In this document: positions 20,201 through 49,693 of the stretch, piece after piece
How the letters are laid out: every line of letters starts with the position of its first letter
Position numbering within the stretch: position 1 is the stretch's first letter
From: a virus
Taxonomy: Duplodnaviria > Caudoviricetes
DNA length: 58,105 bases
IMG/VR virus record: IMGVR_UViG_3300037991_001062
Coordinates: 1 to 58,105 of that record
Direction: 5' to 3' (one strand)
Notes under the pieces: generated by a model
The model's database searches: none
Told to the model about the DNA's origin: nothing
What the model saw: the letters and a program-made list of their open reading frames with translations, nothing else
Program-made: the position numbers and the translations under genes

Positions 20201-22128
20201 CCAAACAAACCACGTTGTGGGTCTATAGCGCTTTCACCTGGTAATAAATCTATATTTATTCCTCCAAGGGCTATACTTAGTGGAGAACCTTTACCGTATA
20301 TGTCATCTAATAGTTTCTCAGCTTTTTCTATTTTCTTTATAGATTCCTTAGCCTCATCTAGAGTCATGCCCTCTATGTTAGGATTGCTGCCCATTCTATA
20401 GATACCTGCTTTTAGATTCTCTAAGTTACCTTTTAAGTATTGTTCTAAAATTACTTCGTTTTCTATACCAGCATATGCATCTTTATCTATAGCATCACCG
20501 CCCTTCAAACTTCTAATAGCTTGTCTGTATTTGTATAACTTAGACATACCTGCTAGAGTTCTACCACTACCAGTCATCATAGTAGCCATATCTTTACCTG
20601 ACTGCACTGCGTGTTTAAACCCTAGGTTGTTGTATAATGCTGGATCACCATCTTTTATACCAGCTCTTACAGCTGCGTAGTCTGCATAATCAGAAACAAA
20701 TCCAGACCTTTTGCCGTTTGAATTGTATAAAGCAGGATCTCCTGCAAGATATTCTTGTGTCCATCTAAATTGTAAACCTTCTTCCGCACCTTCTAACTCT
20801 CTAGATAATCCCACTCTAGCACCAAATCCTGCCAAGTTCGTACCTATCTTACCTACATTTCTACTAGTTACAGCTCTACCTAACTCACGTAAACTACCGC
20901 TACCAAATGTCTTAGCCATACCAGGAACCTTTGCAAAGGTTAGTGCAAACTGTAATGCATCACCCGCACCTAGTTTATAGTTTTTATTTTTAAGTTCTTC
21001 TACACCCTTATATGCTTCTATTGCAATATCGTTTCTTTCACGTTTAGTTAACTCTCCAGGTAAACCATCATCTAGTTTTTGTTGAATAGCTTCTTTTTCT
21101 AGTTGGTCCACTCTTTGCCAGTAAGTATCACCAGCCTCCATAGATGTTTCTAAATATCTACTAAGACCAATACCATATCCAACAGATGCAATGTTGGCAA
21201 GAGCTACAGCTCCTCTACCATAGGGATTACCTGAAAGAGCAGGGCTAGCAGCCTTAATACTATTCAAAACTAAAGGAACTCCTATACTATAAATCCATCC
21301 TTCAGCAGTAGATAATGTACCTGCTAAGTCTCCTGCTGCTTGATACCTAAAATAGTCTCCTGTATTAGCACCTATTCTATCATTTCTGTTCTCAGATATT
21401 TCTCCACGAAGTAACCAGTCTTCTGATATATTGTAATCACTTTCAAGACTGTCTTCTCTCTCTGCAATTTCTTTTAGTATATCTTCTTTACGAGCTAATA
21501 ATGATTGGTAATCTGTTTTATTACCACTCTTATATACAGCATCCATTAGATCGTTGGTAAGTCCATATTCTTTTGCCAACTGTTCTGCTCTAGCTACATC
21601 CTGTTCGTTAACACCAAGGTTACCGTATATCTGCATTAGATCATTCTCTGAGTCTTCCTCTATAAACTCTCCATTCTCTATTCTATTAGAGAGTAACGCA
21701 TGCTGCTGTCTACTAATTCTACCATCTTGTAGTAAAGCATCAACTTGCATCTTATTGTTTTCTATCTTAGCTAGATTAACATTAAGAGCTGCAAGCCTAT
21801 CTAGGTTTGAAGATAGTTTAAATTGCTTAATAGTTTTGGATAAATTAGAAAGGCTGTTTGAGAAATCACTTTTAAATACAGTTTTGTATGCATCAGGTCT
21901 AGCTTCTAGCGTAGGCATCTCTGCACCAAACCCAGCTCTAGTACTCTGCTCTGCAAATCCTACTGATTTTATAGTAGAATCTATTATACTTTGAGGAGGA
22001 GATAGGTTTAAATTTGTATCTTCCAATTTTAAATAGGAATACTCGTAAGGTACTGAACTAACTGTAGAAGAATTATTTACATCTTCTTGTTGCAGTAAAC
22101 CGCCTTCTTCTAATTTCTTCTTAGACAT
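8281..22128 (-). CDS. Giant virion-packaged RNA polymerase (crAss-like) fused to SF1 helicase-like and zincin domains (4615 aa)
   Basis: Catalytic-type GSDFDIDSL motif (DFDID at 10972-10986), preceded by GFRIPS and DAQGY. SF1 motifs GAAGTGKT, IIDEA, GDPGQ, VYR, AQGQT and YTASSRA at about 17100-18000. HETFH at about 14884-14898. Confidence 0.9.
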   Translation of the reverse strand: MSKKKLEEGGLLQQEDVNNSSTVSSVPYEYSYLKLEDTNLNLSPPQSIIDSTIKSVGFAEQSTRAGFGAEMPTLEARPDAYKTVFKSDFSNSLSNLSKTIKQFKLSSNLDRLAALNVNLAKIENNKMQVDALLQDGRISRQQHALLSNRIENGEFIEEDSENDLMQIYGNLGVNEQDVARAEQLAKEYGLTNDLMDAVYKSGNKTDYQSLLARKEDILKEIAEREDSLESDYNISEDWLLRGEISENRNDRIGANTGDYFRYQAAGDLAGTLSTAEGWIYSIGVPLVLNSIKAASPALSGNPYGRGAVALANIASVGYGIGLSRYLETSMEAGDTYWQRVDQLEKEAIQQKLDDGLPGELTKRERNDIAIEAYKGVEELKNKNYKLGAGDALQFALTFAKVPGMAKTFGSGSLRELGRAVTSRNVGKIGTNLAGFGARVGLSRELEGAEEGLQFRWTQEYLAGDPALYNSNGKRSGFVSDYADYAAVRAGIKDGDPALYNNLGFKHAVQSGKDMATMMTGSGRTLAGMSKLYKYRQAIRSLKGGDAIDKDAYAGIENEVILEQYLKGNLENLKAGIYRMGSNPNIEGMTLDEAKESIKKIEKAEKLLDDIYGKGSPLSIALGGINIDLLPGESAIDPQRGLFGIGRDEAGTNAFDRNKKMAFLNAMEIVDKEQQLKDLEVEQLEFANGKESSLNSMFGLDDLSREEKADVQSKLESRGIRATPFDVQIEELKNELNRLKTDNKNIATGDFVYSNMGGYMSMQEFRKYADLQKRAKELGETKELTEAQRAEFRDIQTELAKILWTSGVEYNNISKNYNESNIRRATMLQFIGQTIALMGKDPKKHLASILNSIAEKGMQLDQETLETVMSEADRAIKERNDIQERKDENAALIEGILNGSKDISGNDKDFDPTAGGFTAFTPLSKTEQNSLEIYTKDEANLSPAQKNDLAQLRERAVTQDKINELQKQNNDFDSQLENLNGIADAGQKILNRGVESFLLDDNNFRVKSTDEVIVDTAINDLIGATNYLRAQLELNPDYADVNYVRSILEQIEGRSRIFERRAAETGNELFSDIAQTLETLYGEVVDLSQVVAENNASRVASQTEFENQITENLLNSIGIDSNFEFFKEGPFAQIAELTKSIIDPKEFNKIKEAVIGPDVKLTDKTMAAMLMVNLVKTRLQEDQVFKTKFQDTLKETKTSIKNKIKEDAKDSSIEYRSEYLDNPETTFDTYQLPNIDDAFDIVTQTSPTFRYEDHKNLSKYLEDVIASERPADVQLPSAAIPNLSIEKSDGVTRIQKEDLVKLLTNQLDLRKLTYLELILDSETTPIDVVHSEKFIADNPQTAPLKPTKQQLNAAREILLYLGLPEANTIPADANIGDFTAVLQGAAGTGKTKVVLQLAMTLSGLGTGSVFTMGHNASSSKTLSDALKTDNNTVENFLQIVNSEQGFPATTNLLIIDEAFGFSDEQMSDVNEAVVNINRERKQQELPLLKVIMLGDPGQITTERIDALQLNNISSRVKTFITPVSTVYRSDIPALVDFQNIFRRRLTPIENTPIVTKVTNLNIGTFNENTNPIKGVYGVSGNFKEGIKERLEKTKESNDGKRRVIITDPTRVEDYRAFVEGNGFNHVEVLSYIEAQGQTITEVYMDIKGLDMNGDELSPSQINDALYTASSRASDLVVAGNLNIENTVDENLDKISSGLASEIRERDVEFLREVQDNYDFIKELPSLSVSDQAKEKTKELEENQEVDIEEQEDIADDSGVEEEINTNMDPIDDQGNEAQHPTPPVDEYYEEDTVEEVTDSEAISVDFPEFTATSETTDVIINGQTYTVAPAQDNQPAFAVVSKVGDKVGLVIYQPAVDAEGNAIPGAFRRLAVFGENDIAKATWIKPAEKAAIQDRINSGKAPLLTSAGIPGDKSIFIKDINLAANNVLPGLIVPQGGIRRLTYKYKKRADVDSVDKNTKYSNEEGVSIKRGVVDKLLTKFVTSFYNDSKQKPSEKDIKRKSSFKIFKTNREVRSYQSRIGEGFEIKKGVPYIIIEGIDNTQGNKNRIQMIPLVPRKLRRSNRDDFRNYYQPIEEFIKNVQEVERIIGYTYGTPEFRNFIYGMNMESLQQRMEEVGRLGVPQVEMERIDAMLGGVYAEVLRDETGALLRDENGRLAMITSGPGLAQSVMNKLARANNKRPGFDGFRVVNKIKDNSGNIVKAGHKARGLMAVPDPQKHAGLEYLFYNIQKLQSLFTDVDGVNQVLYVPLILPKDNKKQSLSSKAVQQYIDMHLQDPTDEIYRTQIFLSRGEIVEQAPVETQEDIQADPVDDSLKLDESDLDDIVGDFKLFEDKDGYSDKKGKLVTKPEALKELRRILPDAFRKDGTLKTGYISFINGADMLRLTEKPGALGVFMDNMMFIKEDRGGIYKNIVRHETFHKIFSYFLTAAERKALLNAAREQYSEARDMNDLQVEEFLADKFMTYEQAPQSFTQKVAAFFKKVLRFFNIISKDANNVKKFFDNVENGYFTGFKGEPLDSDAKHFIDINKEYGNTDVYRASKHLLVRSLGSLLAKTDQTSTVDEAGNVSNVFFNRDERFAYVKDQVLPALKSKYANIKNPTEEQVVLKVALDKLTSGRTADRLYKELYNQKAAEFELESKEAESMQDQIIDASEINHKNNLSSEVRDFLNNITYTKADGTKETVSYNYAYFTALQLLSGLDSSLDTDAMLREIASREKELSHKPGSPGSAIIQAIKGLVETSLANEINITDSQGVLSSVTFPNNSKFDVTKNNQEVFVYHPTKDVSLIDVDNDVLDDSTKVIRRDKKESSASFVGRALRESGLEVETAKPMYKKFYNLNVFKNLYVNTASLRKERFHMGDYSIDTVADPVSGVTERQVKTRYYQHKEFGSKAANEANIKDRIFDNYKKLLKKRRAIDSLLKQNKVELAYFTMLDAVGIYVPKDRVGFDKSNLDQVKTALSEVLGKVYAATNKRKKQVDEFGNPVVYKRNNKAKGEVKGQPVTVAATPEDALEDSAGFIKTLSSALINIDQNQKAGSIRTAEGKTVYTFHNSSFAIDSLLGLAGKGPVKDVHIENNDPIWSKLYKYNIFTNGTSKIIDIADHDAYADRKGRKSPTTMNLEKPSQWFERNFVYQFATAMQKESEGLSYIQQLHTVADTKNVRNVRVPVLSKNAVRKALAAIYTQSKAKEVTPLVFTEEFNSAASASSFAKAAEKKIGERIEKLSKFLTDNNIGPQYTALRSADAMLKEQDLGFKNANEAFMYNYAVNSFFANQVIMGDTSSLKDSFKVIKRAKVAHAPGYRGLVNDKYGMPKKYNIAVSEDPKANPFEYMSNAEKQAFKDQLAIMGVEFDIADAQGYMLPSRRADIRKGFGNGLNIGNVLKPVYYGVHADGNAVAVKYSSVVLTDDLVNRFPALKDLRTKMERAKVGEFIMDTAIKNGNPKVQSKTGYNFETGETNFRIAKQSIIEMDSNNFRIQLDPEADIDTFVSNPTQLGYFINSNGKNKAESVEYYSLFAQLQRIGLDKVYRELGIKSNNREYSRGERQKLKNTIQKTLAKSAAKRENSLREAAMLAEGDIDVNFPAIVAKSISLLSSNFEKSVIKPKFPGQKLALMSDLGVTVFEKGDLVGTRSELEAQGITVDDSWSERPLRHMYGNNNYAEVILPEALKGQFQIGDDFFNKYGMGFRIPSTELHSAIPLRVVGFSNEAGTSTLIAPKELSPLHGSDFDIDSLFIIRRATIFDRDKGGRRIFTAEGVDVRIDVQDALLNPSNYINNMEDVIDQAVAERSAVRNQSEINKDLDKRLTKEIAILNNVREAAIKNRMLEIYLDVITADKNRESMLTPINLKVLNGKDVNSVFDMYAKNAKISVPSNAKNYKNSGFYEGKDLSDPFDEMYMHQSNQQGAKLTGIFANSMKAISYLMGDNLNDKDAREGASVITRDDNTQEAKKVTYKIDNKEYSDFQRIDTEGNAIFVALDGLVNAAIDNANEQILNILNLNNNTAGYMALMLAQGVPLNTAAAVVGQPAIRAAFEMEGSFDGNLGVIQDSLIDRLDMATEEVAAIIDAARDQGLNTTELEGGISRFEDRVEDFDNYTKDQLTEQIVVIDFLKNLKSAQSQLIKVSNALSIIQAMPNDLASLEGKIEQWGELFQQNEDGTYSNVDRNLNSTILLKHPHIAQAFVALNFLSGAMSSVFHLASPRVAAYADSFSGDINRSDLENKNQVQVEFRSQILRYLTSSLEDTSNEKPVTIKTDSGSFKLRGNRAFVHNATIRVKEMQDATNNSGDRLGDVHPFLSNILTEKDRFGNKYIKAADTKAPTQDEMIDIHNSFNKLDQEDQDMIVKYAIVNEGLEFAPGNITLLLPPNVLTDVSKKREALLSRLFATGESLQKQSSLDILDNVKDHFELQYNLNNPTRVRDHYRLGKDESDNFIKALTRNNSIYGTTIENGIVTDYAVPGGGHAQYLMNNNIGVLYTKVHEVADIDGNVTKTLYQQVGRASSQVSAFTVPNDILEAKTTYTYNKKDYFNPQYVTRTVDVLSQKDLTLSKPILDQDGNQALKPGDKMIVKLAGDSLRTNAKIRTIESISNDGLSIKFKGTVTSIKSTPKQEQDAMKANMDNDSVQLSDKCKTG

Positions 22129-35942: not shown

Positions 35943-36362
35943 TTAGTTTTTCTGTGTATCATTTTTCTTTGAGCTACCGCCGAAAAAGAAGTCAACAATT
36001 GTGTTAACTTTTGCACTCATGGCCCCAAAGATAGTAGAAATAAAACTAATTTCAAACTCTCCTAAATTTATATCTCCTAGAACAAAGTGATTAAACATCA
36101 CAAAACTAATACCAAAGTACGCAACTGTGAACAAAGTTGCTAACACTTTTTGTATGATAGCATCGTCTTTATACATGTCACGTGCAGACTTTCTATCTTC
36201 TACTTCTTTAGCAAAAGCTTCACGCTCTGCTTCAAGCATTATCTTTTGTAATTCTATCTTAGCCTGATCTCTTTCTTTATCAGTTGTAATTACTTTGTCT
36301 AATATTCCTTCGGCGTTGTCTAGAACCTTGCCAAACAGTCCGCCCATTACTTTTTGTATCAT
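35943..36362 (-). CDS. Putative holin (3TM/GTA holin-like)
   Basis: ILDKVITTDKERDQAK, DRKSAR, then two hydrophobic helices ending FFFGGS with a basic tail. Confidence 0.7.
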   Translation of the reverse strand: MIQKVMGGLFGKVLDNAEGILDKVITTDKERDQAKIELQKIMLEAEREAFAKEVEDRKSARDMYKDDAIIQKVLATLFTVAYFGISFVMFNHFVLGDINLGEFEISFISTIFGAMSAKVNTIVDFFFGGSSKKNDTQKN

Positions 36363-36711: not shown

Positions 36712-37755
36712 CTATATAGTAAATATTGGTGTTCCTATTATTATATTAAAGTTTCCTTGCATAGATACAGTTGAGCTACCTGTACTATTACACACTGCTG
36801 GCATAATAAGATCTCCTGCAGATAAACTAAAAGGAGTTCCAAGTACAGTATTAACTTTATATATCTTGCTATTAGAAGTACCTCCGTCATCATCACCAGC
36901 AGCAAAAAGCCTTTGAGTATATGTTGATGCATTACTTGTTCCTATATCAGGTGTACCTACAAATATAGCTACATCTCTAGGATTAGACTCACTACCGTTA
37001 TTTCTAAACGACCCACTAACTGCAACTAGCTTACAGGCATGTGGCACAAACCAACCTTGTTGTTGCAAATTACTAGCTAGTGACATAGTAACAGTACCAT
37101 CAATAGCTGTGTCTCTAGCTAAACCACTGTTTATAGTAAAGCTGTCAGAACCAAAACCTCCATTAGCTGCAGGTAACTCATAGTTCGTGCCAGTAAAACT
37201 ATTAGTGTTAACTTCCCAGTTTAGGTATTGATAAGCATATAAATCACTTGTAGGTATATTTGCTGCTACGATCTCACCTCTTATAGTTGCTGATGATTTG
37301 TTTTCAACATTGCTTAATCCCAAAGATGTTCTAGCTCCAGGAGCGTTAACTGCCCCAGTTCCACCATTTGCAATAGGTAAAAATCCACTAACATCTGTAG
37401 CTAAGTCAATAGCATTCCTAGTTATTTCTTGTCCTGATAAAGTTATATAATCTAAGCTTCCTGCTAATGTTACATTAGTAGAGTTATCAGTTCCTGCTGC
37501 ATCAACACCTAATGCCGTTCTAGCACTTGCTGCTGAGTTTGAGTTTGTACCTCCATTAGCTATAGGTAACACTCCTGTTACATCACTAGTTAAATCTGTT
37601 GTACCACCACTTACAGTGTTCTTTACTATCTTGTTGTTTGAGTCTAGGCCTAAGTTAGCACCACTAGCAATAGTACCCGTGCTTATATCTTCTAAATAAA
37701 CATCGTTTCTAAATCTAGCAATTAAATCTTGTATGTACTGACCTATAAACCTCAT
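36712..37755 (-). CDS. Tail fibre-like protein with LPIANGGT repeats
   Basis: Two copies of DL..DV.G.LPIANGGT.A..A..AR..LG, a typical fibre shaft repeat, followed by a beta-rich C-terminal domain. Confidence 0.75.
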   Translation of the reverse strand: MRFIGQYIQDLIARFRNDVYLEDISTGTIASGANLGLDSNNKIVKNTVSGGTTDLTSDVTGVLPIANGGTNSNSAASARTALGVDAAGTDNSTNVTLAGSLDYITLSGQEITRNAIDLATDVSGFLPIANGGTGAVNAPGARTSLGLSNVENKSSATIRGEIVAANIPTSDLYAYQYLNWEVNTNSFTGTNYELPAANGGFGSDSFTINSGLARDTAIDGTVTMSLASNLQQQGWFVPHACKLVAVSGSFRNNGSESNPRDVAIFVGTPDIGTSNASTYTQRLFAAGDDDGGTSNSKIYKVNTVLGTPFSLSAGDLIMPAVCNSTGSSTVSMQGNFNIIIGTPIFTI

Positions 37756-38222
37756 TAAGCAAAATCAATGTATTCTATTGTTACTTCTTCTCCTTGTTCT
37801 ATAGCCTTCGCAATAGCTGGATAAATCCTTTTATACGCATTAACGCTCTTACCAACGAACCCATCACGGAGAATAAGATTGTTTTCTTGACTGTCTCCAA
37901 CGATAAGACAACCAGCAGTATGCTCGTCAGTATTTCCAGTATGAATAAGAATATATTCAAAACCAGGTACATCAGTAACATGAAGCATACCACGGTGTAT
38001 ACCAGGATATTTCTTATCGTATCTCGCATGAAAACCTCCTTCTTTTCTTAGTTCTATTTTGTATGTTCCTGCAGGTATTCTTGTTTCACCTTTTACTTTT
38101 AAGACTCTATGCTCATCCTCTAAGGTATAACACAAGAAATGTTTTTTTATATCACTTACTTCAAATAATGCACCATGCGTACAGTCTGACTGTGAACTAA
38201 ATCTTAATACTTCTAATTTCAT
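37755..38222 (-). CDS. DUF5675-like protein (L,D-transpeptidase-like fold, putative endolysin)
   Basis: CYTLED, ETRIPAGTY and ILIHTGNTDEHTAGCLIVG (His...Cys catalytic-type motif). Lies near the holin. Confidence 0.8.
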   Translation of the reverse strand: MKLEVLRFSSQSDCTHGALFEVSDIKKHFLCYTLEDEHRVLKVKGETRIPAGTYKIELRKEGGFHARYDKKYPGIHRGMLHVTDVPGFEYILIHTGNTDEHTAGCLIVGDSQENNLILRDGFVGKSVNAYKRIYPAIAKAIEQGEEVTIEYIDFA

Positions 38223-40042
38223 TCTATAATTAGTTTTGTTGTTATAGTTAAGTTTTCCTTAGAAATCTTAATTAGATATATACCTTTGTTAAGTTTTATT
38301 CTGTTTGTTTTATCTTCTAATATTAATTTACCAATAATATTGTATACCTGTAAATCTACCTTAGATACAAAGTTTACTACACCTGTTGATGGGTTTGGGT
38401 ATGGAAGTACACCTAATCTTTCAAACATAGTAACATCTGTAGGACCACTCCAACCTTCTTCGCAATAGTTATATAACTCATAACAAGTATTATCCCATGT
38501 ATTATCACAGCAATATTGGTCAACTTGTATCACCCACTCAAAACATGAGTTAGGTATATAGTACGGTACACTTGCAGCACATCCTGATTCATAGTAGCAA
38601 CTACTATCAGGTATGTTTGCATCTACATTATAATTAACAGCAGTTATATCAGTACAACCAGCTAATGGTAATATACAAGAACCATTATCTACATTTGCTA
38701 AAGGATCATAGTTAAGTGCTAAACTATCCATACAACCATTTACAACATCTATACAACTACCATTATCTGTGTTGCATGTATCGCAATAATTAAATGCTGC
38801 AGGATCTATACATCCAAAGATAAGTGGTATACAGCTACCATCATCTACATTAGCATTAGGATTATAGTTAAATGCACCATCATCCATACATCCTTCTACA
38901 ACTTCTATACAAGATCCTTCAAGCTCTACATTTGCCTCAGGATTATAATTCAAGGCTGTAGAATCCATACAACCAAGAACGATTGGTGTTAAACACGAGC
39001 CGTCATCAAAATCTGCTTCTTCATTATACTCGATGTAGCTTGGATTCATGCATCCAGCAATATAGTAACAGCTTCCGTCGTCTGTGTTTACACTATCATT
39101 ATAATTAAGTGCTGTACTATCTATACAGCCATATGTTCTATCTATACAATTGTTTCCACAATTAGGCTCACCAAATATGTAAACAAAAGGTGGTATTGGA
39201 TTTACAAATCCTCCTTCAATATCTATAGCTACATACTCTTCAGAATATATACTATATCCACATTGAACTGCAGTAAAATCTGATTGCTGAGTTATATTAA
39301 ACTGTACTCTTACAGGTTCCGATATACTTAACTCAAATGTAAATGTAGTGTCAAACCCTTCTTCTAGGGTAAATTGACCTATAAAATTATCACCTTGATA
39401 AACGTTTAAATATGAACCAGCCCAACCATTGCCAGCTAAATCTGTTAACTCTAATGTGTGCATGCAGCTGTCTATAGACTCATCTATGTTTGCCATAGGG
39501 TCATAGTTAAATGCTAGCGAATCAGTACAACCAAATAGTTTTGGAGTAAAACACATACCTGTATCTACTGTTGCTTCTGGTAAAAACTCTAAAAAGCTAT
39601 CATTCATACAGCCATATACGGGCGGTGGTGGTGCACAGTCTTCTAATGTAAATCCATGAAAAGCAGCATAACCAAAGTCTGCAGAGTCTGGACTTACTAA
39701 AGTATCACCACAATGAACTATATAGTATGATCCATCTTGACCTCCCCACAAACTACCAGCCATACCATCACCATATTGATCAGCTATATTAAATAAGTAA
39801 TCACCATTAGGTATGCATATTTGTACTACTTGAGGCTGATAATCTACTATATCAACATACGGTCCACCAGTAGCAATAGTGTCTTCTAAAGGCGTAATAA
39901 TAGCCCAAGAAGTTTCTTCTGGATATTGGTCAGGATTAATAATTATATTTACATACGTTCCATTAGGACATTGTGCATTTGCAACACATGATACTATCAT
40001 TGCAAAAAATAAAACTATATATATGTATGCTATTTTTTTCAT
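38219..40042 (-). CDS. Secreted Cys-repeat protein with a type IX secretion (T9SS) type-A C-terminal sorting domain
   Basis: True start is likely the ATG at 40042 (MKKIAYIYIVLFFAMIVSCVANA|Q signal peptide), 1 nt after the upstream stop. Nine GCxD..A.NY...A..DDGSC-like repeats. C-terminus YPNPSTG...VYNIIGK...KGIYLIKI...TTKLIIE. Confidence 0.85.
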   Translation of the reverse strand: MKKIAYIYIVLFFAMIVSCVANAQCPNGTYVNIIINPDQYPEETSWAIITPLEDTIATGGPYVDIVDYQPQVVQICIPNGDYLFNIADQYGDGMAGSLWGGQDGSYYIVHCGDTLVSPDSADFGYAAFHGFTLEDCAPPPPVYGCMNDSFLEFLPEATVDTGMCFTPKLFGCTDSLAFNYDPMANIDESIDSCMHTLELTDLAGNGWAGSYLNVYQGDNFIGQFTLEEGFDTTFTFELSISEPVRVQFNITQQSDFTAVQCGYSIYSEEYVAIDIEGGFVNPIPPFVYIFGEPNCGNNCIDRTYGCIDSTALNYNDSVNTDDGSCYYIAGCMNPSYIEYNEEADFDDGSCLTPIVLGCMDSTALNYNPEANVELEGSCIEVVEGCMDDGAFNYNPNANVDDGSCIPLIFGCIDPAAFNYCDTCNTDNGSCIDVVNGCMDSLALNYDPLANVDNGSCILPLAGCTDITAVNYNVDANIPDSSCYYESGCAASVPYYIPNSCFEWVIQVDQYCCDNTWDNTCYELYNYCEEGWSGPTDVTMFERLGVLPYPNPSTGVVNFVSKVDLQVYNIIGKLILEDKTNRIKLNKGIYLIKISKENLTITTKLIIE

Positions 40043-40043
40043 A

Positions 40044-40607
40044 TTATTGTATTGTAAGTTGAATACTACCAAAGACTCTACTGCCGTCTGTACTATTACA
40101 TTTTATATTTATTACTTGACCTCTTGATTTAGGCAGTGATTGAACTCTATTAATGCTACCTGTTGTACTTTGCAACCTTGCATAAGGTGAGTCAATACTC
40201 CAATGAAATTTTGTTTTTTCTGTAGCGTCACTTGGTTGTACAACCGCCGCAACATCTATAGTACCACCATTATCTACAAGCACTGCACCCTTTGGTATTG
40301 TTAAATCTAAACGAGTAAGTTTTTTAAAACCATGATTATCTACTTGTTCTATAGAAAGTAATAGTTTTGCTTTTTCTTTATCTTCGTTTTCAAAATTTCT
40401 AGTAGCTAATACTTTAGTTTTTTCACTTGTGCTTAGAGCATTTTTTTGTGTACCTGTTTTTACTACAACCTCATATACATCATTTGCAGCATCAATAGGA
40501 TAAGGTATATCAATACTAGTGCTACCTCCATAGCCTAATGCAGTATTAGCTTTTGCTATAACTGCGTTGCACTCTGCTTGTGTTCCTGTAAAAATTTCTC
40601 TAGCCAT
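40044..40607 (-). CDS. Protein with C-terminal Ig-like (Big_2-like) domain
   Basis: AVVQPSDATEKTKFHWSIDS...INIKCNSTDGS.V.GSIQLTIQ resembles bacterial Ig group 2. Confidence 0.6.
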   Translation of the reverse strand: MAREIFTGTQAECNAVIAKANTALGYGGSTSIDIPYPIDAANDVYEVVVKTGTQKNALSTSEKTKVLATRNFENEDKEKAKLLLSIEQVDNHGFKKLTRLDLTIPKGAVLVDNGGTIDVAAVVQPSDATEKTKFHWSIDSPYARLQSTTGSINRVQSLPKSRGQVINIKCNSTDGSRVFGSIQLTIQ

Positions 40608-41398
40608 TATGTCATATTATGTCTTGCCTTTAAATCGGCTATTACTTTTGTTAATTCTGTTCCATCTATGTCTCTGTTCCATACGCACATTTCATCCATA
40701 TAACCATCTATAAATTGTGTAGTACTATTAAAACCTACTGTAGTACCATTTAACACAGCATCACTAGTATTAGTTAAATTTACAACACTTTTTGCTGTAG
40801 TTAAGCTACCACCATCTGCAACAGTTTCTACTTTAAATGTTGTATCGCCTGCAGTAGTACCCCCACCATATCTATAAGATATTATAGTTTTTTGATTATT
40901 TACAAGTTTACCTGTGGCGCTAGTTAAAGATACTCTAGTTGTTGTATCACCAAATCCATTTATAACAGCTTGCCAAGTTTGATTTGTATTAAAAGATGAT
41001 GTTCCCCATGAAATAGTATCTTGTATAACGCCAGATGATGGATCATTTAAATATCTACTAATTCTGTTAACTTGTGCTACAGGATGTTCAACAACTACAA
41101 TAACAGTATATGCACTAGAGTTTGGTATTGGCCCATTAGAAATATTCATAAAACTACTACTAACATCACCCCAATCTACTCTACCACTAGCCTCAACAGT
41201 AGGGCGTTTATTAGTTGCTATTGTATTAGTTAAAGTGCGATTATTACCACTGCTATCACCCCATTCTTCTAAATCGTTTCCATCAAGGGTATGTAGCGTA
41301 TTAAACTTATACCAAGCTTGTAAACCTGATATGTCTTTAATACTAAACCCTCCAGTATAAGGGGAACTGTATACTCCTAATCCTAATCCTAATCCCAT
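40607..41398 (-). CDS. LamG / concanavalin A-like domain protein with N-terminal GLGLGL motif (virion-associated lectin-like)
   Basis: MGLGLGLG start, LQAWYKF...WGDSSGNN, and C-terminal GYMDEMCVWNRDI...L.ARH. Confidence 0.7.
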   Translation of the reverse strand: MGLGLGLGVYSSPYTGGFSIKDISGLQAWYKFNTLHTLDGNDLEEWGDSSGNNRTLTNTIATNKRPTVEASGRVDWGDVSSSFMNISNGPIPNSSAYTVIVVVEHPVAQVNRISRYLNDPSSGVIQDTISWGTSSFNTNQTWQAVINGFGDTTTRVSLTSATGKLVNNQKTIISYRYGGGTTAGDTTFKVETVADGGSLTTAKSVVNLTNTSDAVLNGTTVGFNSTTQFIDGYMDEMCVWNRDIDGTELTKVIADLKARHNMT

Positions 41399-41399
41399 A

Positions 41400-41738
41400 T
41401 TAAAATTTACTCATTATTAATTCATCAATATAATTCTGTATCTCTTTTCTTGTAGCCACCATTTCAAAACTAAGATCTGCTTGAAATCTTTTAACTTCTT
41501 CTCCTTCATCAAACACTATAATAGTAGGTACAATAGCAATAGCATATTCTTTTTGTATATCTTTATCATCTATACTTAAACTTTTTTTACCAGCGTCTGA
41601 TAATTTATCAAACCACTCAACATCATTAGCTTCGTTCCAGCCTGCATTAAAGTGTATCACTGTGATCTGTGAAAAAGCAGTATACGAGACCGTACAAAAA
41701 AATAATAATAATAGATGTTTGTATAAAACTTTCCACAT
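41400..41738 (-). CDS. Secreted thioredoxin-fold protein lacking CxxC
   Basis: Signal peptide ending TAFS|Q. VIHFNAGWNEAN aligns with Trx V.F.A.WC..C. The cis-Pro motif IAIVPTIIVF..GEEVKRF is retained. Confidence 0.72.
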   Translation of the reverse strand: MWKVLYKHLLLLFFCTVSYTAFSQITVIHFNAGWNEANDVEWFDKLSDAGKKSLSIDDKDIQKEYAIAIVPTIIVFDEGEEVKRFQADLSFEMVATRKEIQNYIDELIMSKF

Positions 41739-42016
41739 TATTGATATATTTTTTGCTCTATCTTTTCAAGCGTTTCCTTTATTTCTTTAACATCTTCCTG
41801 CGTATTCATAATAGTATTACGAATCATTTGATCTTTCATATCAAACTCCATACGTGTAACTTCTGGATCTGGTGGAGCTGGTAATTCTTTTGCTTCAGCT
41901 ATCTCACCTTTCAGTGTAAACCACATACCTGTCATAGTTACTAGTACAAAACCTAAGGATATAATTGTTTCTAAGCTTAATTTAATTTTAGTGTCTTTAC
42001 CTATTTCAGTTGCCAT
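41738..42016 (-). CDS. Single-pass membrane protein with Pro-rich linker and C-terminal coiled coil
   Basis: Hydrophobic IISLGFVLVTMTGMWFTL, then LPAPPDP, then the heptad-rich QEDVKEIKETLEKIEQKIY. Confidence 0.7.
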   Translation of the reverse strand: MATEIGKDTKIKLSLETIISLGFVLVTMTGMWFTLKGEIAEAKELPAPPDPEVTRMEFDMKDQMIRNTIMNTQEDVKEIKETLEKIEQKIYQ

Positions 42017-42018
42017 TT

Positions 42019-43050
42019 TTAAAATATAACGTAGTTAATTCCTAATTTAAAGTCGTACCATTCTTTGTTCCAATACTTATTGTATTTACCTTCAATGAAA
42101 CAACCTAGGTGCTTAGTCGCTTTTAGTCCAAATATCAGTCCTCCTGAGTAATCATACCATTGTTCTCCATCATTGAAGTTGTGATATGAGTATATGCCAC
42201 CATCATCATAATGGTAAGGCATTAGGTTACCCCAGGAATGTAACCAAAAGTTTTTCTTATAGTGATAGAAATCAAAACCTATAACTAATGAGTGTTGCCA
42301 CTGATTAGCTAGTTCATTTCTTTTCTTCTCTACATAGTTTTCTAGAACCTGTGGTATAATTACTTGATTCCATACCTCAGCACTAGTTGCTACAATAGCA
42401 CCATCTGGTGCTCTGTATTCTGATTCATATACATCTATACTATAACCTTCTTCAATAGCTAGTTGTGTATAGTGTATATCACCAGTAGTCATTGTCCACT
42501 CTTCTAGCGGATCATAACCATATGGTTCTGCTAGTCTTTGTACGGCACCTATATTGAATGATAGCTTTTTACTACCATTCAATCTTAGTCTATGTGTTCC
42601 TTCAAAGTACTCTATGTCTGCAAAACCATCTTTAATATATTCTGCTTTTGTAAACCACTTAGATCTAGCATATCTTATAAAGTGATGCTGATCAAGATAC
42701 TCTACACCTTCTTGTCTTCTATATTCTATCTCAAATAGATACTCAAAAGGGTTTCTTCCTATACTGGCAGCATCACTAAATGAAGACTCTGTACCATCTT
42801 TAAATGGTGATGAGCCTTCATACTGAAACCTTTGTATCTTACGAATACCCATAGATAATGAGTAGTCATAAGGAGTAATGATAGTATCATATAGCAAGGT
42901 ACTGCCATCTACAGAGTATATCTCCTGATCAGATAGTGATGTACCACCATTAGCAGCCACATAGAATGTAGAAAACTTTATAGCCTTCTTAAACTGTGCA
43001 GAACTAATTAGTGAACACAGTAAAAATAATATTAAAAATTTTATTCTCAT
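42019..43050 (-). CDS. Predicted outer-membrane beta-barrel protein
   Basis: Signal peptide MRIKFLILFLLCSLISSA|Q, aromatic-rich alternating strands, and C-terminal YDFKLGINYVIF ending in Phe (BAM beta-signal-like). Confidence 0.7.
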   Translation of the reverse strand: MRIKFLILFLLCSLISSAQFKKAIKFSTFYVAANGGTSLSDQEIYSVDGSTLLYDTIITPYDYSLSMGIRKIQRFQYEGSSPFKDGTESSFSDAASIGRNPFEYLFEIEYRRQEGVEYLDQHHFIRYARSKWFTKAEYIKDGFADIEYFEGTHRLRLNGSKKLSFNIGAVQRLAEPYGYDPLEEWTMTTGDIHYTQLAIEEGYSIDVYESEYRAPDGAIVATSAEVWNQVIIPQVLENYVEKKRNELANQWQHSLVIGFDFYHYKKNFWLHSWGNLMPYHYDDGGIYSYHNFNDGEQWYDYSGGLIFGLKATKHLGCFIEGKYNKYWNKEWYDFKLGINYVIF

Positions 43051-45718: not shown

Positions 45719-48700
45719 TTAATCTGAGACGTCTAAAGATTCTCCTCCTCCTAAACTTATTCCTCCAGGTCCACCTAAATTTAATATTGGAGTTCCTGTA
45801 TAAGTAGTAGTCCCAGGCATATACGTTACATCTTGGAATGCTCCATAAGGAGATTTAAGTATACCACTTCTCTCTCTACAATCCTCACAGTATGTTAAAA
45901 CTATTTTTATAAACTCTCTTAATCTTGCGTTTGAAGCGTCTTCACCATCAAATAAACATGCAGCCGCTTTCTTTCTTAAAAGATCGTTTATCATAGATAA
46001 ATGTAAATATCTATCCTCGTCTACTGTCTTACCTGTTAACATAGCACTAAAGTATTTTTCACCCTTATACTGCAAGCAGTGTTGCAAATATACTAAAAAT
46101 GCCTCAAAGTCTGGTATCTCTGGTGGTACTACTGGTCCTTCAGGTTCTCCATCAACTAAACATGTACCATTATCAATACTAGCTAATGGATTATAATTTG
46201 ATGCTTCAGGGTCTGTACAACCAAATATTACTATATACTGGCATAGTGTATTATCTGCTAATATGTATGGAGGATTAACTTCACTCACATAATTTATAGC
46301 ATCAGGATCTGTACACACAAATTCTGGATATTGACAACTTCCATTATCAACATTAGCGTTTTCATTAAAGTTTATAGCTGTAGGATCAATACAACCAGGT
46401 ATCTCCCCACACTCTCCATATATATTAAATGTAGCCTGAGGATTATAATTTTCTGCAGTTTGAATCATACATCCACATATTTCAACATCATTCTCTGTTA
46501 AATTATATGTATAAGTTAGTGGACACTCTGTAGCATCTGCAGATCCAATCAAAGGTATTAAGTTATCAAAAGTATCGTTAAATGTATTTAAACTAATATA
46601 AAAAGTAAAATTAAAAGTATACTCTCCAAATGCATAAGGGCTTCCAGTTATAGCTGCTATCTCTTCTAGTGTAAAAGTCATACCAGTGCTACCAAGTACA
46701 TCTCCTGTATCTGGGATGATAGAAAAGTTTGTACCAGACATTCCTGTTAGATAATGATCAAATATTTGACCAGTATTAGTACTAACACTAACTGAGAATA
46801 TCATGCCTGGAGTTCCTGAAACTTGAATATCAAAGTATCCTGAGCAGTTTACTGTCTCTCCTTCTGGAGATGTATATAGTTCAGTACCTATAAAATTAAC
46901 AGATCCGTTAGTTGCAAAGTCATCACAATTAGTTGATGTAGTACATAAATCATTATTAGCAAATTGTGTAATAGGATCTAATACTTCTACACAATTAGTA
47001 ATTCCTATACCGCAATCATTACATACACCCTCTTGTAAAACAAACGATCCATTTGTTACACACCCACCAAGTGCAAAATTAGCTAGCATCAATCCTGAAG
47101 ATCTAGCACTGTCTGATATTGGATATACATAAAAGAAATATCCATTATGACTTGTAGTATTTACTGTCCATGGATGATCTAAACTAAAAGTTTGAACATT
47201 ATCATTAGCAGAAGTGTTTAAAGCAGTAATAGTATTTGTAAATATTACATTAGCGTTATAAGGATCTGCACTAATAATATCACCTATATATTCAGTAAAT
47301 GCAGCATCAGCTTGAGCGCCGTTTGTTACAGTAGCTGGATCAAATACTACTATACCAAAATTTTGAGTATCTATCATAGATGCTGCCGGTTGATTCAATG
47401 TTAAGTATAAAGTAACATTATAGCCATCAGGAATAAGATCTCCAGCTGCTAATTGTAAATCTGCGTATTCGTTAGGAGTAAGAGCTACATTATTAGAATG
47501 TGCTACACTAATAAAACTACTTCCAAGTCCATTAGCATTATTACAATATACACATAAACTATTATCAGTAATGTTAGCATCAGGATTATAATTTAGAGCA
47601 GTATTATCAGTACATCCTGTAATATCTGTACTAGTTACTTCTACATAAAAGTTGTTTTGTACTGAACACAATGTGTTTACCTCAGCCCAACTTGCTGAAG
47701 CAATTTCTACAGCTACTATATTTATTTGAGTAATACCGTCTTCTTCAACAGGAAATGCCAGATCTACTATACCAATTGTAAGCTCTCCTCCAGTAGAAGC
47801 TTCTTCAAACGATCCGTCGTTAACTGTTATAGTTACATTAGGCAGAACCTCTTGAGATACTGGATTATAAGCTTGAAAAGCATTAGGGCCTGTTTGAAAT
47901 ATTCTTAGGTTAAAATTAGATACATCTCCACCACTTACAACTTCTATATATACCATTAGTGAAGTTGCAGTAGAACCATTGTAAAAAGGATTATTAGTAC
48001 CCTCATAAGGATCTAATTCTGCATTATCTCCAAAGGCTATTGAAAAAGTTGTTTCTACTAACATAGAACTTCCTGATGACCCTTGTATATTGAAGCTCTG
48101 GTTAGTATCTGATTCATATATATAAAACTCTGGAAAAGTACAAGACAGATCATCAACGTTAGCTTCAGGATTATAGTTACAAGCTGCAACATGTGTACAA
48201 CCTAAAACCTCAGGATCTCCAACTGGGTCAGTTACTTGATTATCCTGATATGAATAATAGATGGCTTGAAAACCCATAGTTTCTACATAGTTATCACTAT
48301 TAAATGGATCTAACTTTCCAGCATTTGGATTTGCTGCAACACCACCTTCTTGACTGTGCGTGCCATATTTATATGCTAGCATTCCATACTCACTAGGAGT
48401 ATTGAATACTAAAACTTTTTCAGCAGATCTTTTCCACCATCCTGCAGGGTTAAAGTATTCATCTACTGCAACGGCTGGTGCTCCTGCTACTGGTATTGCA
48501 AATCCTGAGCCATCTGCATCTTCAACACCCCAATTATAACCTGAAAAAAATAGATTTTGCAGTGGATCAGAATCATCTATGTTAGCACTAGGTACTGTGC
48601 TGTAAAGTGTTCCTACTGGAGAAGCAGTACTTCCTTCAAATATATCCACAGCAAATGGCCCTGTAAAAGCATCATGATAACCTTGAATATTACTACCACC

Positions 48701-49693
48701 AAAACTTAAAGTATTCCAGGCAAATCTACTGGTGTCTTTATTCATTACATAACCAGTTTCACCACTTGTATCAGTAGGTAACTTTCTAGCACTAGCTGCA
48801 AAATTATCATTAGTCCTTGCTTTTTTAGGAACATATAATGCAGCATATATTTTTTTTGTTTCGTTTGTTACACCATACCCTTCACCTTGAAATGGAATTG
48901 AACTTCTTACCATTCCAGGTTTTAAAAATTGAAAAACAGCTGCTTGCAATGAGGTGCCCGTTCCAAATGTAGTACCATCTGCATTATTTGTATTAGGTCC
49001 TAAATTATTAGGGTCGGTATCTATAGCTCCTATAGCTTGCCCATATATATTTCCTACTTGAACTCCAATTGGGTGTGGCAGATCTATAGGCTTTCTACAC
49101 CATGCTACCTCCTCATCAGCATTTATATACATTTTGTAAAAAACCTGAATGTTTATGTAAGTGTCAAGACCATTATTGTTATATGGATTAGTACCATTTA
49201 TAAAATCTCTTATAACATCTGAACCACCACCACGAGTAATATATATAGCATATGAAGATCCTCCATATATTTCTGCACCCACTGGCGCCATAATATAGTT
49301 AACATCAGCAGAAGGTATGCTAAAACCTGCAACACCTTTACTACCTATAACAACTTCAAAAGGATTAGAATTATCACCATCTCCAATACTAAAAGCATCT
49401 TGACCAGTAGGAGCTCCGTCTACAATACCCTGAGCAAAGTTTAAAGCAGCCATAATATTACCAGTCAATATTGATCCTACGCTTTCTGGACCATCTTCAG
49501 TATAAAAATCATTTATAAGTATTACATATTTAATATATCCTGGTACAACCTGTTTTACATCTTCATATAGAAATTGACCAGCTGGACCTGCTGCTGAATT
49601 ATCAAAATTATCACTACCACCATGTCTTGGCGTGCGCATTCTTCTAATATCAATTATTTGACCTGTTAAAGTTAATCTTGTAGTACTAGACAT
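45719..49693 (-). CDS. Large acidic structural protein with six Cys repeats, possible tail hub / adhesin-like appendage (1324 aa)
   Basis: Six GCTD..A.NY...A..D..SC-like repeats, no N-terminal signal peptide, and a helical Cys-containing C-terminal domain. Confidence 0.6.
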   Translation of the reverse strand: MSSTTRLTLTGQIIDIRRMRTPRHGGSDNFDNSAAGPAGQFLYEDVKQVVPGYIKYVILINDFYTEDGPESVGSILTGNIMAALNFAQGIVDGAPTGQDAFSIGDGDNSNPFEVVIGSKGVAGFSIPSADVNYIMAPVGAEIYGGSSYAIYITRGGGSDVIRDFINGTNPYNNNGLDTYINIQVFYKMYINADEEVAWCRKPIDLPHPIGVQVGNIYGQAIGAIDTDPNNLGPNTNNADGTTFGTGTSLQAAVFQFLKPGMVRSSIPFQGEGYGVTNETKKIYAALYVPKKARTNDNFAASARKLPTDTSGETGYVMNKDTSRFAWNTLSFGGSNIQGYHDAFTGPFAVDIFEGSTASPVGTLYSTVPSANIDDSDPLQNLFFSGYNWGVEDADGSGFAIPVAGAPAVAVDEYFNPAGWWKRSAEKVLVFNTPSEYGMLAYKYGTHSQEGGVAANPNAGKLDPFNSDNYVETMGFQAIYYSYQDNQVTDPVGDPEVLGCTHVAACNYNPEANVDDLSCTFPEFYIYESDTNQSFNIQGSSGSSMLVETTFSIAFGDNAELDPYEGTNNPFYNGSTATSLMVYIEVVSGGDVSNFNLRIFQTGPNAFQAYNPVSQEVLPNVTITVNDGSFEEASTGGELTIGIVDLAFPVEEDGITQINIVAVEIASASWAEVNTLCSVQNNFYVEVTSTDITGCTDNTALNYNPDANITDNSLCVYCNNANGLGSSFISVAHSNNVALTPNEYADLQLAAGDLIPDGYNVTLYLTLNQPAASMIDTQNFGIVVFDPATVTNGAQADAAFTEYIGDIISADPYNANVIFTNTITALNTSANDNVQTFSLDHPWTVNTTSHNGYFFYVYPISDSARSSGLMLANFALGGCVTNGSFVLQEGVCNDCGIGITNCVEVLDPITQFANNDLCTTSTNCDDFATNGSVNFIGTELYTSPEGETVNCSGYFDIQVSGTPGMIFSVSVSTNTGQIFDHYLTGMSGTNFSIIPDTGDVLGSTGMTFTLEEIAAITGSPYAFGEYTFNFTFYISLNTFNDTFDNLIPLIGSADATECPLTYTYNLTENDVEICGCMIQTAENYNPQATFNIYGECGEIPGCIDPTAINFNENANVDNGSCQYPEFVCTDPDAINYVSEVNPPYILADNTLCQYIVIFGCTDPEASNYNPLASIDNGTCLVDGEPEGPVVPPEIPDFEAFLVYLQHCLQYKGEKYFSAMLTGKTVDEDRYLHLSMINDLLRKKAAACLFDGEDASNARLREFIKIVLTYCEDCRERSGILKSPYGAFQDVTYMPGTTTYTGTPILNLGGPGGISLGGGESLDVSD

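Follow-up and report, generated by a model that had tools for sequence, protein, structure and literature searches.

Why would a bacteriophage encode a protein bearing, at its two ends, the labels by which Bacteroidota address their own proteins to their type IX secretion system (T9SS)? This system is confined to Bacteroidota and their relatives, where it builds the cell surface through adhesins, gliding proteins and polymer-degrading enzymes. The question is raised by a gene of 607 codons, hereafter the cargo gene, in the IMG/VR record IMGVR_UViG_3300037991_001062, a linear virus record of 58105 bases (CheckV completeness 67%) that was analysed over its whole length and is referred to as the window. 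A sequence-only reading of the window had described the product of this gene as a T9SS substrate with a Sec signal peptide, two beta-sandwich-like domains, nine cysteine repeats and a small CC-containing domain. Our analysis supports the presence of both labels of a T9SS type A cargo in a phage gene, on the combined evidence of hidden Markov model (HMM) cut-offs, profile matches in the PDB, a modelled fold and 64 viral homologues. We consider it reasonably probable that the gene specifies a phage-made cargo of the host T9SS, an adhesin-like binding fibre that would be displayed on the surface of the infected cell or released from it.

The open reading frame (ORF) is intact as described, in a single frame on the minus strand, and all the motifs quoted in the sequence-only reading were found in its translation: DQYGDGMAG (residues 88-96), DLAGNGWAG (201-209) and DQYCCDNTWDNTC (508-520), then YPNP (548-551), VYNIIGK (566-572), KGIYLIKI (586-593) and KLIIE (603-607) at the C-terminus. 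An alternative upstream start is possible at a TTG (position 40072), but 41 aligned homologues have N-termini in line with a start at the ATG (position 40042). The sequence-only reading had identified the C-terminus as a T9SS type A C-terminal sorting domain (CTD) and named TIGR04183 (Por_Secre_tail) as the model to search with. This model scored 37.8 bits over residues 548-607 of 607 (E 1.4e-9, curated threshold 23), and PF18962 scored 36.7 bits over residues 548-606 (E 5.1e-9, curated threshold 27). Both thresholds are passed, and the domain stands right at the C-terminal end of the cargo. When all six frames of the record were searched, the cargo tail was the sole such match (42.2 bits). 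The remark that this domain is somewhat short was also accurate, with about 60 residues compared with model lengths of 72-75 positions; bacterial tails align over 70-77 columns and the cargo tail over 64, and sister phage alleles have three extra residues in one tail loop. The tail region is basic, with an isoelectric point of 9.6.

Structural comparisons point in the same direction. A profile of 42 homologues searched against the PDB recovered the tails of Flavobacterium johnsoniae cargo proteins (8glk_D, E 2.8e-5; 8glj_D, E 1.3e-4) and, more weakly, those of gingipains; with this profile, no usable PDB match was obtained for the part of the cargo outside the tail. A whole-family profile also aligned with perforin-2, over 24 residues at E 0.27, a match that was not relied on. 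An AlphaFold model of the cargo built on the homologue alignment had a mean predicted local distance difference test (pLDDT) score of 78.6 and a predicted template modelling (pTM) score of 0.38, the latter being low because of the beads-on-a-string architecture of the protein. The modelled residues 543-607 superposed on the CTD of RgpB (Z 7.9-8.1), on the CTDs of NucA, FspA and RemA within T9SS complexes (Z 6.9 over 63-64 residues, root-mean-square deviation (rmsd) 2.1-2.2 Å, 23-31% identity), on 9x1i_B at its C-terminal end (Z 8.4, rmsd 1.8 Å) and on the mirolase CTD (Z 5.9), as well as on the tails of PorZ and HBP35, and Foldseek paired the modelled tail with 8glk_D at a probability of 1.00. 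For the NucA, FspA, RemA and RgpB tails taken together, the rmsd is 2.0-2.3 Å. As modelled, the tail shares the immunoglobulin (Ig)-like beta-sandwich fold of solved cargo tails. Within VYNIIGK, Gly571 is invariant (42/42 aligned sequences) and, equated by motif position, would stand at the place of RgpB G699 in the loop between strands 3 and 4. In the accessible part of published work on RgpB, this loop glycine is functionally required and a lysine of the last strand is also conserved (PMC11285876). The cargo carries a lysine (Lys603) at the latter place.

At the other end of the protein, MKK is followed by a hydrophobic core (mean Kyte-Doolittle value of 3.03 over 12 residues) and by ANA, with predicted cleavage ahead of Gln24, which is invariant in 42/42 aligned sequences. 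A glutamine directly after the cleavage site fits the Q-rule of Bacteroidetes, as set out in the accessible part of PMC5837995. The leader pattern, the hydrophobic core and their conservation in homologues bear out the Sec signal peptide proposed earlier; such leaders were found in three of the 38 window ORFs, namely the cargo gene and two neighbours, one further ORF having an internal membrane segment. With a Sec signal and a T9SS tail on the same protein, the infected cell very probably exports the cargo product.

These features recur in a large family. In a word-based protein search, 7144 of 8000 scored sequences reached E <= 0.001 and the best 120 relatives, many from marine surveys, were 53-83% identical to the cargo; a full scan gave 10597 representatives at E <= 0.001, most of them with nothing but the Cys repeat in common, the longest such proteins reaching 6618 residues. 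PF18962 was at or above its cut-off in 22 of the 26 representatives scanned, with one more just under. The IMG/VR collection contained 50 distinct loci encoding a cargo relative, and BFVD entries show that viral relatives are automatically labelled 'Secretion system C-terminal sorting domain-containing protein' in UniProt. The hydrophobic leader was present in 61 of 64 distinct full-size viral homologues (the three leaderless ones being start-codon or contig-end artefacts of the ORF caller), the small-x-small-Q pattern in 53 and the tail, as scored by a custom HMM made from 32 sequences, in 55. The remaining nine end in a shorter, different tail recognised by no library. This alternative tail of about 35 residues (...LGR...LFYIYDDGTVEKK...) is seen, for example, in L044:9932-11797, L046:9566-11998, L088:6712-7788 and L119:5778-9017. 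Two ORFs in Flavobacteriales genome loci terminate in it too, and it may represent a sorting signal that is truncated or not yet catalogued.

The ratio of nonsynonymous to synonymous substitution rates (dN/dS) indicates purifying selection on the cargo gene, with whole-gene values of 0.08-0.24 over 12 pairs, all figures being rough since dS exceeds 1 in many pairs. The two sandwich modules of the passenger, D1 and D2, are the most constrained (0.04-0.17 in 11 of the 12 pairs, 0.27 in the near-identical twelfth) and the tail the least (0.09-0.97 in nine computable pairs). A non-functional gene was rejected on the whole-gene values together with the 64 distinct intact homologues.

The lower constraint on the tail is accompanied by a pattern of exchange. 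Over the 325 pairs formed by 26 close homologues, 39 combined passengers at least 75% identical with tails at most 40% identical, and the reverse pattern, similar tails on divergent passengers, was found in none. The window's cargo and L003, for instance, share 87% of the passenger and 32% of the tail, and L024 and L026 share 92% and 38%, respectively; at least four discrete tail types can be distinguished in the alignment. Compared with other phage or metagenome tails, the one in the window shows 63-84% identity; with the tails sampled from bacterial metagenome-assembled genomes (MAGs), it shows at most 40%. By these comparisons, the sorting tail is a cassette exchanged among phages with near-identical passengers. 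According to the accessible part of PMC11285876, CTDs are not interchangeable between Porphyromonas and Tannerella; because of this, the exchange is most simply read as a matching of the tail to the T9SS of a particular host. Co-variation gave no evidence of a contact between the tail and the neighbouring outer-membrane barrel: the partial Mantel correlation between them was 0.30 (p 0.001), but values of 0.21 and 0.15 were obtained with two other neighbours, sp112 and tm92, and relatedness explains the signal.

What, then, would be exported? The modular layout of the passenger was correctly anticipated. Both sandwiches are present in the model (residues ~30-133 and ~193-291), and the nine GC...C repeats, of 25-27 residues each, start at residues 144, 171, 305, 330, 357, 384, 410, 436 and 462, two of them lying between D1 and D2 and seven after D2. 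The CC-containing mini-domain is likewise confirmed, with modelled helices at 499-507, 509-512 and 518-528, low confidence at 529-539, and the invariant residues C500, W503, D508, C511, C512, W516, D517, C520, Y524 and C527. The whole protein contains 34 cysteines, 33 of them in residues 24-540. This same region of 517 residues has 79 Asp and Glu compared with three Lys and Arg. Such a scarcity of Lys and Arg would leave the passenger nearly uncuttable by trypsin-like proteases.

D1, in which D38, E43, T44, D88, G91, D92 and G93 are invariant, had PLAT/C2-like sandwiches as its top fold matches (Z 5.4-6.4), and the D2 model matched the calcium-dependent vCBM60 domain 2xfd (Z 7.6, rmsd 2.7 Å, 87 residues), the permuted carbohydrate-binding module (CBM) 2xhh (Z 6.8) and lipoxygenase PLAT domains (Z around 7), all middling scores. 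Both modules are perhaps binding-type sandwiches, possibly calcium-dependent. A common origin of D1 and D2 is unsupported, hhalign pairing them over only 16 columns around the D-x-x-G-D/N-G motif at a probability of 34%. A Pfam scan of the cargo protein found no domain besides the tail and no catalytic domain; PHROGs had no family for it, Protein Atlas scores for D1 (residues 24-139) peaked at 0.77-0.79, under the lead level, and the seven-repeat stretch had zero matches to PDB sequences at E <= 10. No catalytic domain was found in ten longer phage variants of the cargo either. One phage variant (L043:9668-12253) has a MAM domain at its N-terminal tip (PF00629, E 1.9e-22) and other long ones carry extra copies of the D1-type sandwich, the tip being modular. 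Because a hairpin-repeat stalk with two sandwich modules at its tip is the architecture of a fibre, our best guess is that the passenger is adhesin-like and not an enzyme.

The record itself belongs to a marine crAss-like phage (Crassvirales), as established by a crAss-type major capsid gene (Crass_capsid PF23898, 272 bits) and two ring proteins above the 27-bit cut-off (CrAss_Ring_1 PF24228, 203 bits; CrAss_Ring_2 PF25702, 100 bits). Its capsid matched 143 records, all below 60% identity, and is about 30% identical to those of crAss-like phages of Bacteroides and Flavobacterium; the known hosts of the capsid-matched crAss-like phages are all Bacteroidota. Against the GenBank phage collection, megablast of an 8-kb region gave zero matches, as did tblastn of the cargo (50,697 phage records) and of the barrel, and these searches identify no cultured or deposited phage with the cargo or barrel gene. 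A genome scan for relatives led almost exclusively to MAGs of marine Flavobacteriales, and SprA was above its cut-off in all five of the tested Flavobacteriales MAGs that bear passenger-like modules. Candidate hosts are likely to be marine Flavobacteriales able to read the tail. The three top 'bacterial' matches (L052-L054) bear the trio of barrel, tm92 and sp112 genes and are therefore phage contigs that were binned into MAGs. Parts of the stretch occur in 20 run entries from ten studies, all labelled as marine, seawater or coral-reef metagenomes, with half or more of its sequence words in four of the 20. One run labelled as a metatranscriptome had 11 short contigs on the region, covering the cargo, DUF5675 and barrel genes and including 215 nt inside the cargo gene with eight differences; this is at most a hint, and no demonstration, of transcription, and no weight is given to parts left uncovered.

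Taken together, these features suggest the following course of events. The precursor would cross the inner membrane by Sec, leaving an N-terminal glutamine, and would fold and form its disulfides in the periplasm. The SprA/PorV translocon of the host would then read the tail and let the passenger through the outer membrane, where a PorU-type sortase would remove the tail, the passenger staying on the cell surface or being released. The passenger would form a stiff stalk of nine hairpin repeats, perhaps stiffened by calcium, bearing two binding-type sandwiches at its far N-terminal end. It would probably alter the binding properties of the infected cell and, afterwards, of its debris, for example by covering the phage's own receptor or by attaching the cell to particles or to other cells nearby.

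The cargo gene is located in a late block with virion and lysis genes (Table 1). It starts 1 nt past the stop of the preceding gene and its own stop overlaps the start of the next one as ATGA, a spacing from which we infer that it is co-expressed late with the adjoining genes. All on the same strand, the order is barrel, tm92 and sp112 upstream, two variable leaderless genes, the cargo gene, and the DUF5675 gene downstream.

Table 1. Positions in the window of the cargo gene, of the segments of its product and of other genes of the record
Feature	Position	Strand	Basis
Cargo gene (P0001), 607 codons + stop	38219..40042	-	ORF list and translation
Sec signal peptide, residues 1-23, predicted cleavage between ANA and Q24	39974..40042	-	Hydrophobicity and site pattern
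Beta-sandwich module D1, residues 24-139, DQYGDGMAG	39626..39973	-	Model, strands at residues 30-133
Cys repeats 1-2, residues 140-195	39458..39625	-	Repeat list; Cys invariant
Beta-sandwich module D2, residues 196-295, DLAGNGWAG	39158..39457	-	Model, sandwich ~193-291
Cys repeats 3-9 (stalk), residues 296-486	38585..39157	-	Repeat list; short hairpins in model
Cys-rich helical mini-domain, residues 487-540, with DQYCCDNTWDNTC	38423..38584	-	Model helices
Linker and T9SS type A CTD, residues 541-607	38222..38422	-	PF18962, TIGR04183, fold
DUF5675 gene, candidate cell-wall lysin	37755..38222	-	PF18925, 100.3 bits; ATG overlaps cargo stop (ATGA)
Holin-like gene, 139 aa, weak	35943..36362	-	phrog_3427, E 1.9e-4; PF11351, E 0.0017, below cut-off
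Tail-fibre-like gene	36712-37755		Tail-fibre PHROGs
Virion structural gene	40607-41398		Virion structural PHROG
sp112, 112-aa signal-peptide protein, thioredoxin fold without CxxC	41400..41738	-	2vim_A, E 6.3e-7
tm92, 92 residues, one membrane segment and coiled-coil-like periplasm-side tail	41738..42016	-	Hydrophobic from about residue 18
Outer-membrane beta-barrel, 343 aa, signal peptide, ends ...GINYVIF	42019..43050	-	Model
1324-residue protein without signal peptide	45719-49693	-	29 Cys, scattered GC...NY...DDGSC repeats
4615-codon ORF	8281-22128	-	Sole Pfam match AAA_30/helicase-type P-loop, residues 1375-1497

The neighbours are themselves directed in part to the envelope. The DUF5675 protein contains an H...GC motif (HTGNTDEHTAGC) that we take to resemble that of YkuD/C82 enzymes, and it is probably the cell-wall lysin of the phage. 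The accessible part of a preprint places DUF5675 with C82-like peptidase lysins (10.64898/2026.04.11.717860). In sp112 a gap or other residues (WNEAN) stand in place of CGPC, and CxxC occurs there in none of the 42 aligned homologues; a redox-active thioredoxin is ruled out, leaving a thioredoxin-fold protein. The tm92 alignment comprised 37 homologues. The barrel model (pLDDT 75.6, 14 strands) gave 141 Foldseek matches at E <= 0.001, all outer-membrane barrels among the matches listed, and its top fold matches are 12-stranded (EstA, Z 15.2; KdgM, 14.5; Tsx, 14.3). The fold searches do not point to a private PorV/FadL-like shuttle with 14 strands, FadL appearing at rank 47 with Z 7.8 behind these 12-stranded barrels of autotransporter, KdgM or Tsx type. 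The barrel could be placed in no family by Pfam, NCBIfam or PDB profile searches, and in the Protein Atlas it fell with phage-only clusters (0.98-0.99), named barrel families scoring 0.92-0.93 and serving as leads only. Barrel homologues (L126, L136, L152, L183 and others) begin either with an ...AQ leader or with a lipoprotein-like ...SCAAPKKCCSQ, so that anchoring may differ between phages.

Querying with the barrel gave 79 viral loci, 76 of them with a barrel ORF and 45 of these flanked on either side by 4 kb or more. In these 45 well-flanked loci, the cargo, tm92 and sp112 genes occurred together in 40, and a DUF5675 or holin-like gene lay within the stretch in 29; sp112 was present in all 40 cargo-bearing loci and in none of the five lacking the cargo. 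Elsewhere in the record, ORFs of 4615, 1590 and 1538 codons stand on the same strand, along with tail-fibre-like genes. The 4615-codon ORF is flanked by ORFs of 1590, 619, 1092 and 1538 codons, and the region presumably corresponds to the block in which crAss-like phages encode giant proteins packaged in the virion. The 1324-residue repeat protein is located where crAss-like tail or fibre genes lie. A promoter scan gave 29 promoter-like sites for 48.3 expected, with a sigma-70 consensus unsuited to Bacteroidota, and a terminator scan gave four terminator-like sites for 3.4 expected, hence no signal.

Other functions were weighed for a gene in such a setting. The cargo, the barrel, tm92 and the inactive thioredoxin could together carry out an envelope-disrupting lysis step, the acidic, cation-binding cargo reaching the outer membrane through the T9SS and weakening it after the DUF5675 protein has cut the wall. 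The recurrence of these four genes in 40 of the 45 loci, with a DUF5675 or holin-like gene in 29, speaks for this role, as do the overlap between the cargo stop and the start of a proposed C82-like lysin, the layout of tm92, which is that of an inner-membrane spanin (N-terminal membrane segment and coiled-coil-like tail), and the 79 acidic residues of the passenger for three basic ones. However, we know of no lysis system that employs a secretion-system cargo, and a disulfide-stapled fibre of 584 residues with modules at its tip resembles a binding protein and not one that disrupts membranes. The holin assignment is a weak one (E 1.9e-4), five of the 45 loci have the barrel but lack the cargo, so that the barrel at least has a role of its own, and gene neighbourhood by itself is weak evidence; a lysis accessory is in our view unlikely. 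A bolder version, in which the cargo, the CxxC-less thioredoxin, tm92 and the barrel would form one envelope machine that replaces spanins in outer-membrane lysis or release, the tail allele being a host-range determinant of this late function, is a speculation to which we give rather little credence.

A second kind of role would lie in the T9SS itself, which the cargo might occupy or slow, or in a coating of the surface, so that the receptors of competing phages no longer appear. T9SS-dependent surface proteins serve as phage receptors in Flavobacterium, the tail is genuine and conserved, and its alleles are swapped as though following the host machinery, all of which would suit a decoy. Yet a decoy needs the tail only, and the long passenger and its tip modules are more constrained than the tail. 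The gene stands in the late structural and lysis block and not among early genes, a position that speaks against exclusion at an early stage. The sequence-only reading had also raised a jamming of the translocon, and nothing in the sequence would favour it. We regard decoy or exclusion as very unlikely. The product might finally be a tail fibre or decoration protein of the virion, its tail merely resembling a sorting domain and its leader going unused for export. Its gene lies between a tail-fibre-like gene and a virion structural gene, the Cys repeat is shared with the 1324-residue protein that has no signal peptide, and Ig-like sandwiches are frequent on phages. Against a virion fibre stand the conservation of the leader (61/64) and of the small-x-small-Q pattern (53/64), the restriction of such leaders to three envelope-directed genes of the window, and a tail that passes two curated cut-offs and has true cargo tails as its best PDB sequence matches. 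No PHROG family matches the cargo, and the 33 cysteines left after leader cleavage would suit an oxidising compartment; we judge this explanation highly improbable. The three rivals, lysis accessory, decoy and virion fibre, each fit the data less well than a fibre exported by the T9SS.

The exported-fibre reading has its own weak points, which we gather here. The tail is shorter than usual, TIGR04183 reaches E <= 0.01 in 30 of 42 aligned members and misses the other 12, several sister alleles have no lysine at the strand-7 place of Lys603, and the nine homologues with a different tail depart from the pattern. The fold of the cargo is that of a predicted model, the signal peptide was judged solely by hydrophobicity and cleavage-site pattern, and the export of the protein, the removal of its tail and its attachment to the surface are deduced from sequence. 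Z scores below 8 for D1 and D2 may reflect a common sandwich arrangement, making the calcium and binding reading a weak one, and the dN/dS figures are rough as stated. The contigs of the RNA library may derive from DNA. The cargo gene is found among tail-fibre-like genes, and the occurrence of the Cys repeat in the leaderless 1324-residue protein implies that it also serves in a protein assembled in the cytoplasm, so that the repeat alone is no sign of export.

Since widespread marine crAss-like phages keep the cargo under purifying selection, together with three envelope-directed genes in 40 of 45 loci, abundant marine Flavobacteriales very probably have their surface rewritten by infection in the time just before lysis. 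Such a change could affect phage adsorption to debris, superinfection, the attachment of cells to particles and what becomes of lysed carbon. The exchange of tails as cassettes also offers a testable handle on the specificity of T9SS recognition between hosts.

Phage T9SS cargoes have been described before as a concept (Bellas 2020; de Jonge 2019). Beyond these two reports (PMC7468147 and PMC6949934), the literature covered, from which most subscription journals are absent, yielded no further phage T9SS cargo and no experimental test; the value of the present locus is that of a well-documented candidate for a first experiment, rather than of a new concept. In its accessible part, the first report describes genes with type A sorting domains in the glacier phage 'Cryophage', read as hijacking the host T9SS and differing from one phage variant to another, with an endoglucanase, a GH39 protein and a PA14 protein as cargoes (PMC7468147). 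By contrast, the present cargo has no enzyme domain and is conserved and core-like in marine crAss-like phages, in which mainly the tail varies. The second report, in the part accessible, concerns gut crAss-like 'cluster 2' contigs, likewise from phages of Bacteroidota, with T9SS sorting-domain ORFs near structural genes and linked to BACON repeats (PMC6949934); with tblastn of the cargo against the 50,697 GenBank phage records, we found no sequence relation between these ORFs and the cargo family.

Among cellular proteins, the closest parallels are the T9SS type A cargoes of Bacteroidota, such as NucA, FspA and RemA of F. johnsoniae (PDB 8glk, 8glj, 8gl6) and RgpB of P. gingivalis, which combine a Sec leader with a C-terminal Ig-like sorting domain; here, the gene belongs to a lytic-type crAss-like phage, its tail is some ten residues shorter than the models and its assignment is read from the sequence. 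The calcium-dependent carbohydrate-binding modules CBM60/CBM36 (2xfd, 2xhh) and PLAT/C2-like domains share the sandwich fold in the model, with an Asp/Gly-rich loop motif in D1 and D2, but at identities of at most 14% and with no Pfam match to the cargo, which indicates resemblance only and not membership. Giant proteins of marine Flavobacteriales MAGs (L072, L073, L089, L102 and L121) have the GC...NY...DDGSC repeat in common with the cargo, and also D1-like modules (25-36% identity), and a type A tail was found in all of them except L089. Whereas these proteins reach 1473-2180 residues and have other added domains, the phage form is compact, with 607 residues, and stands in a cassette found only in phages.

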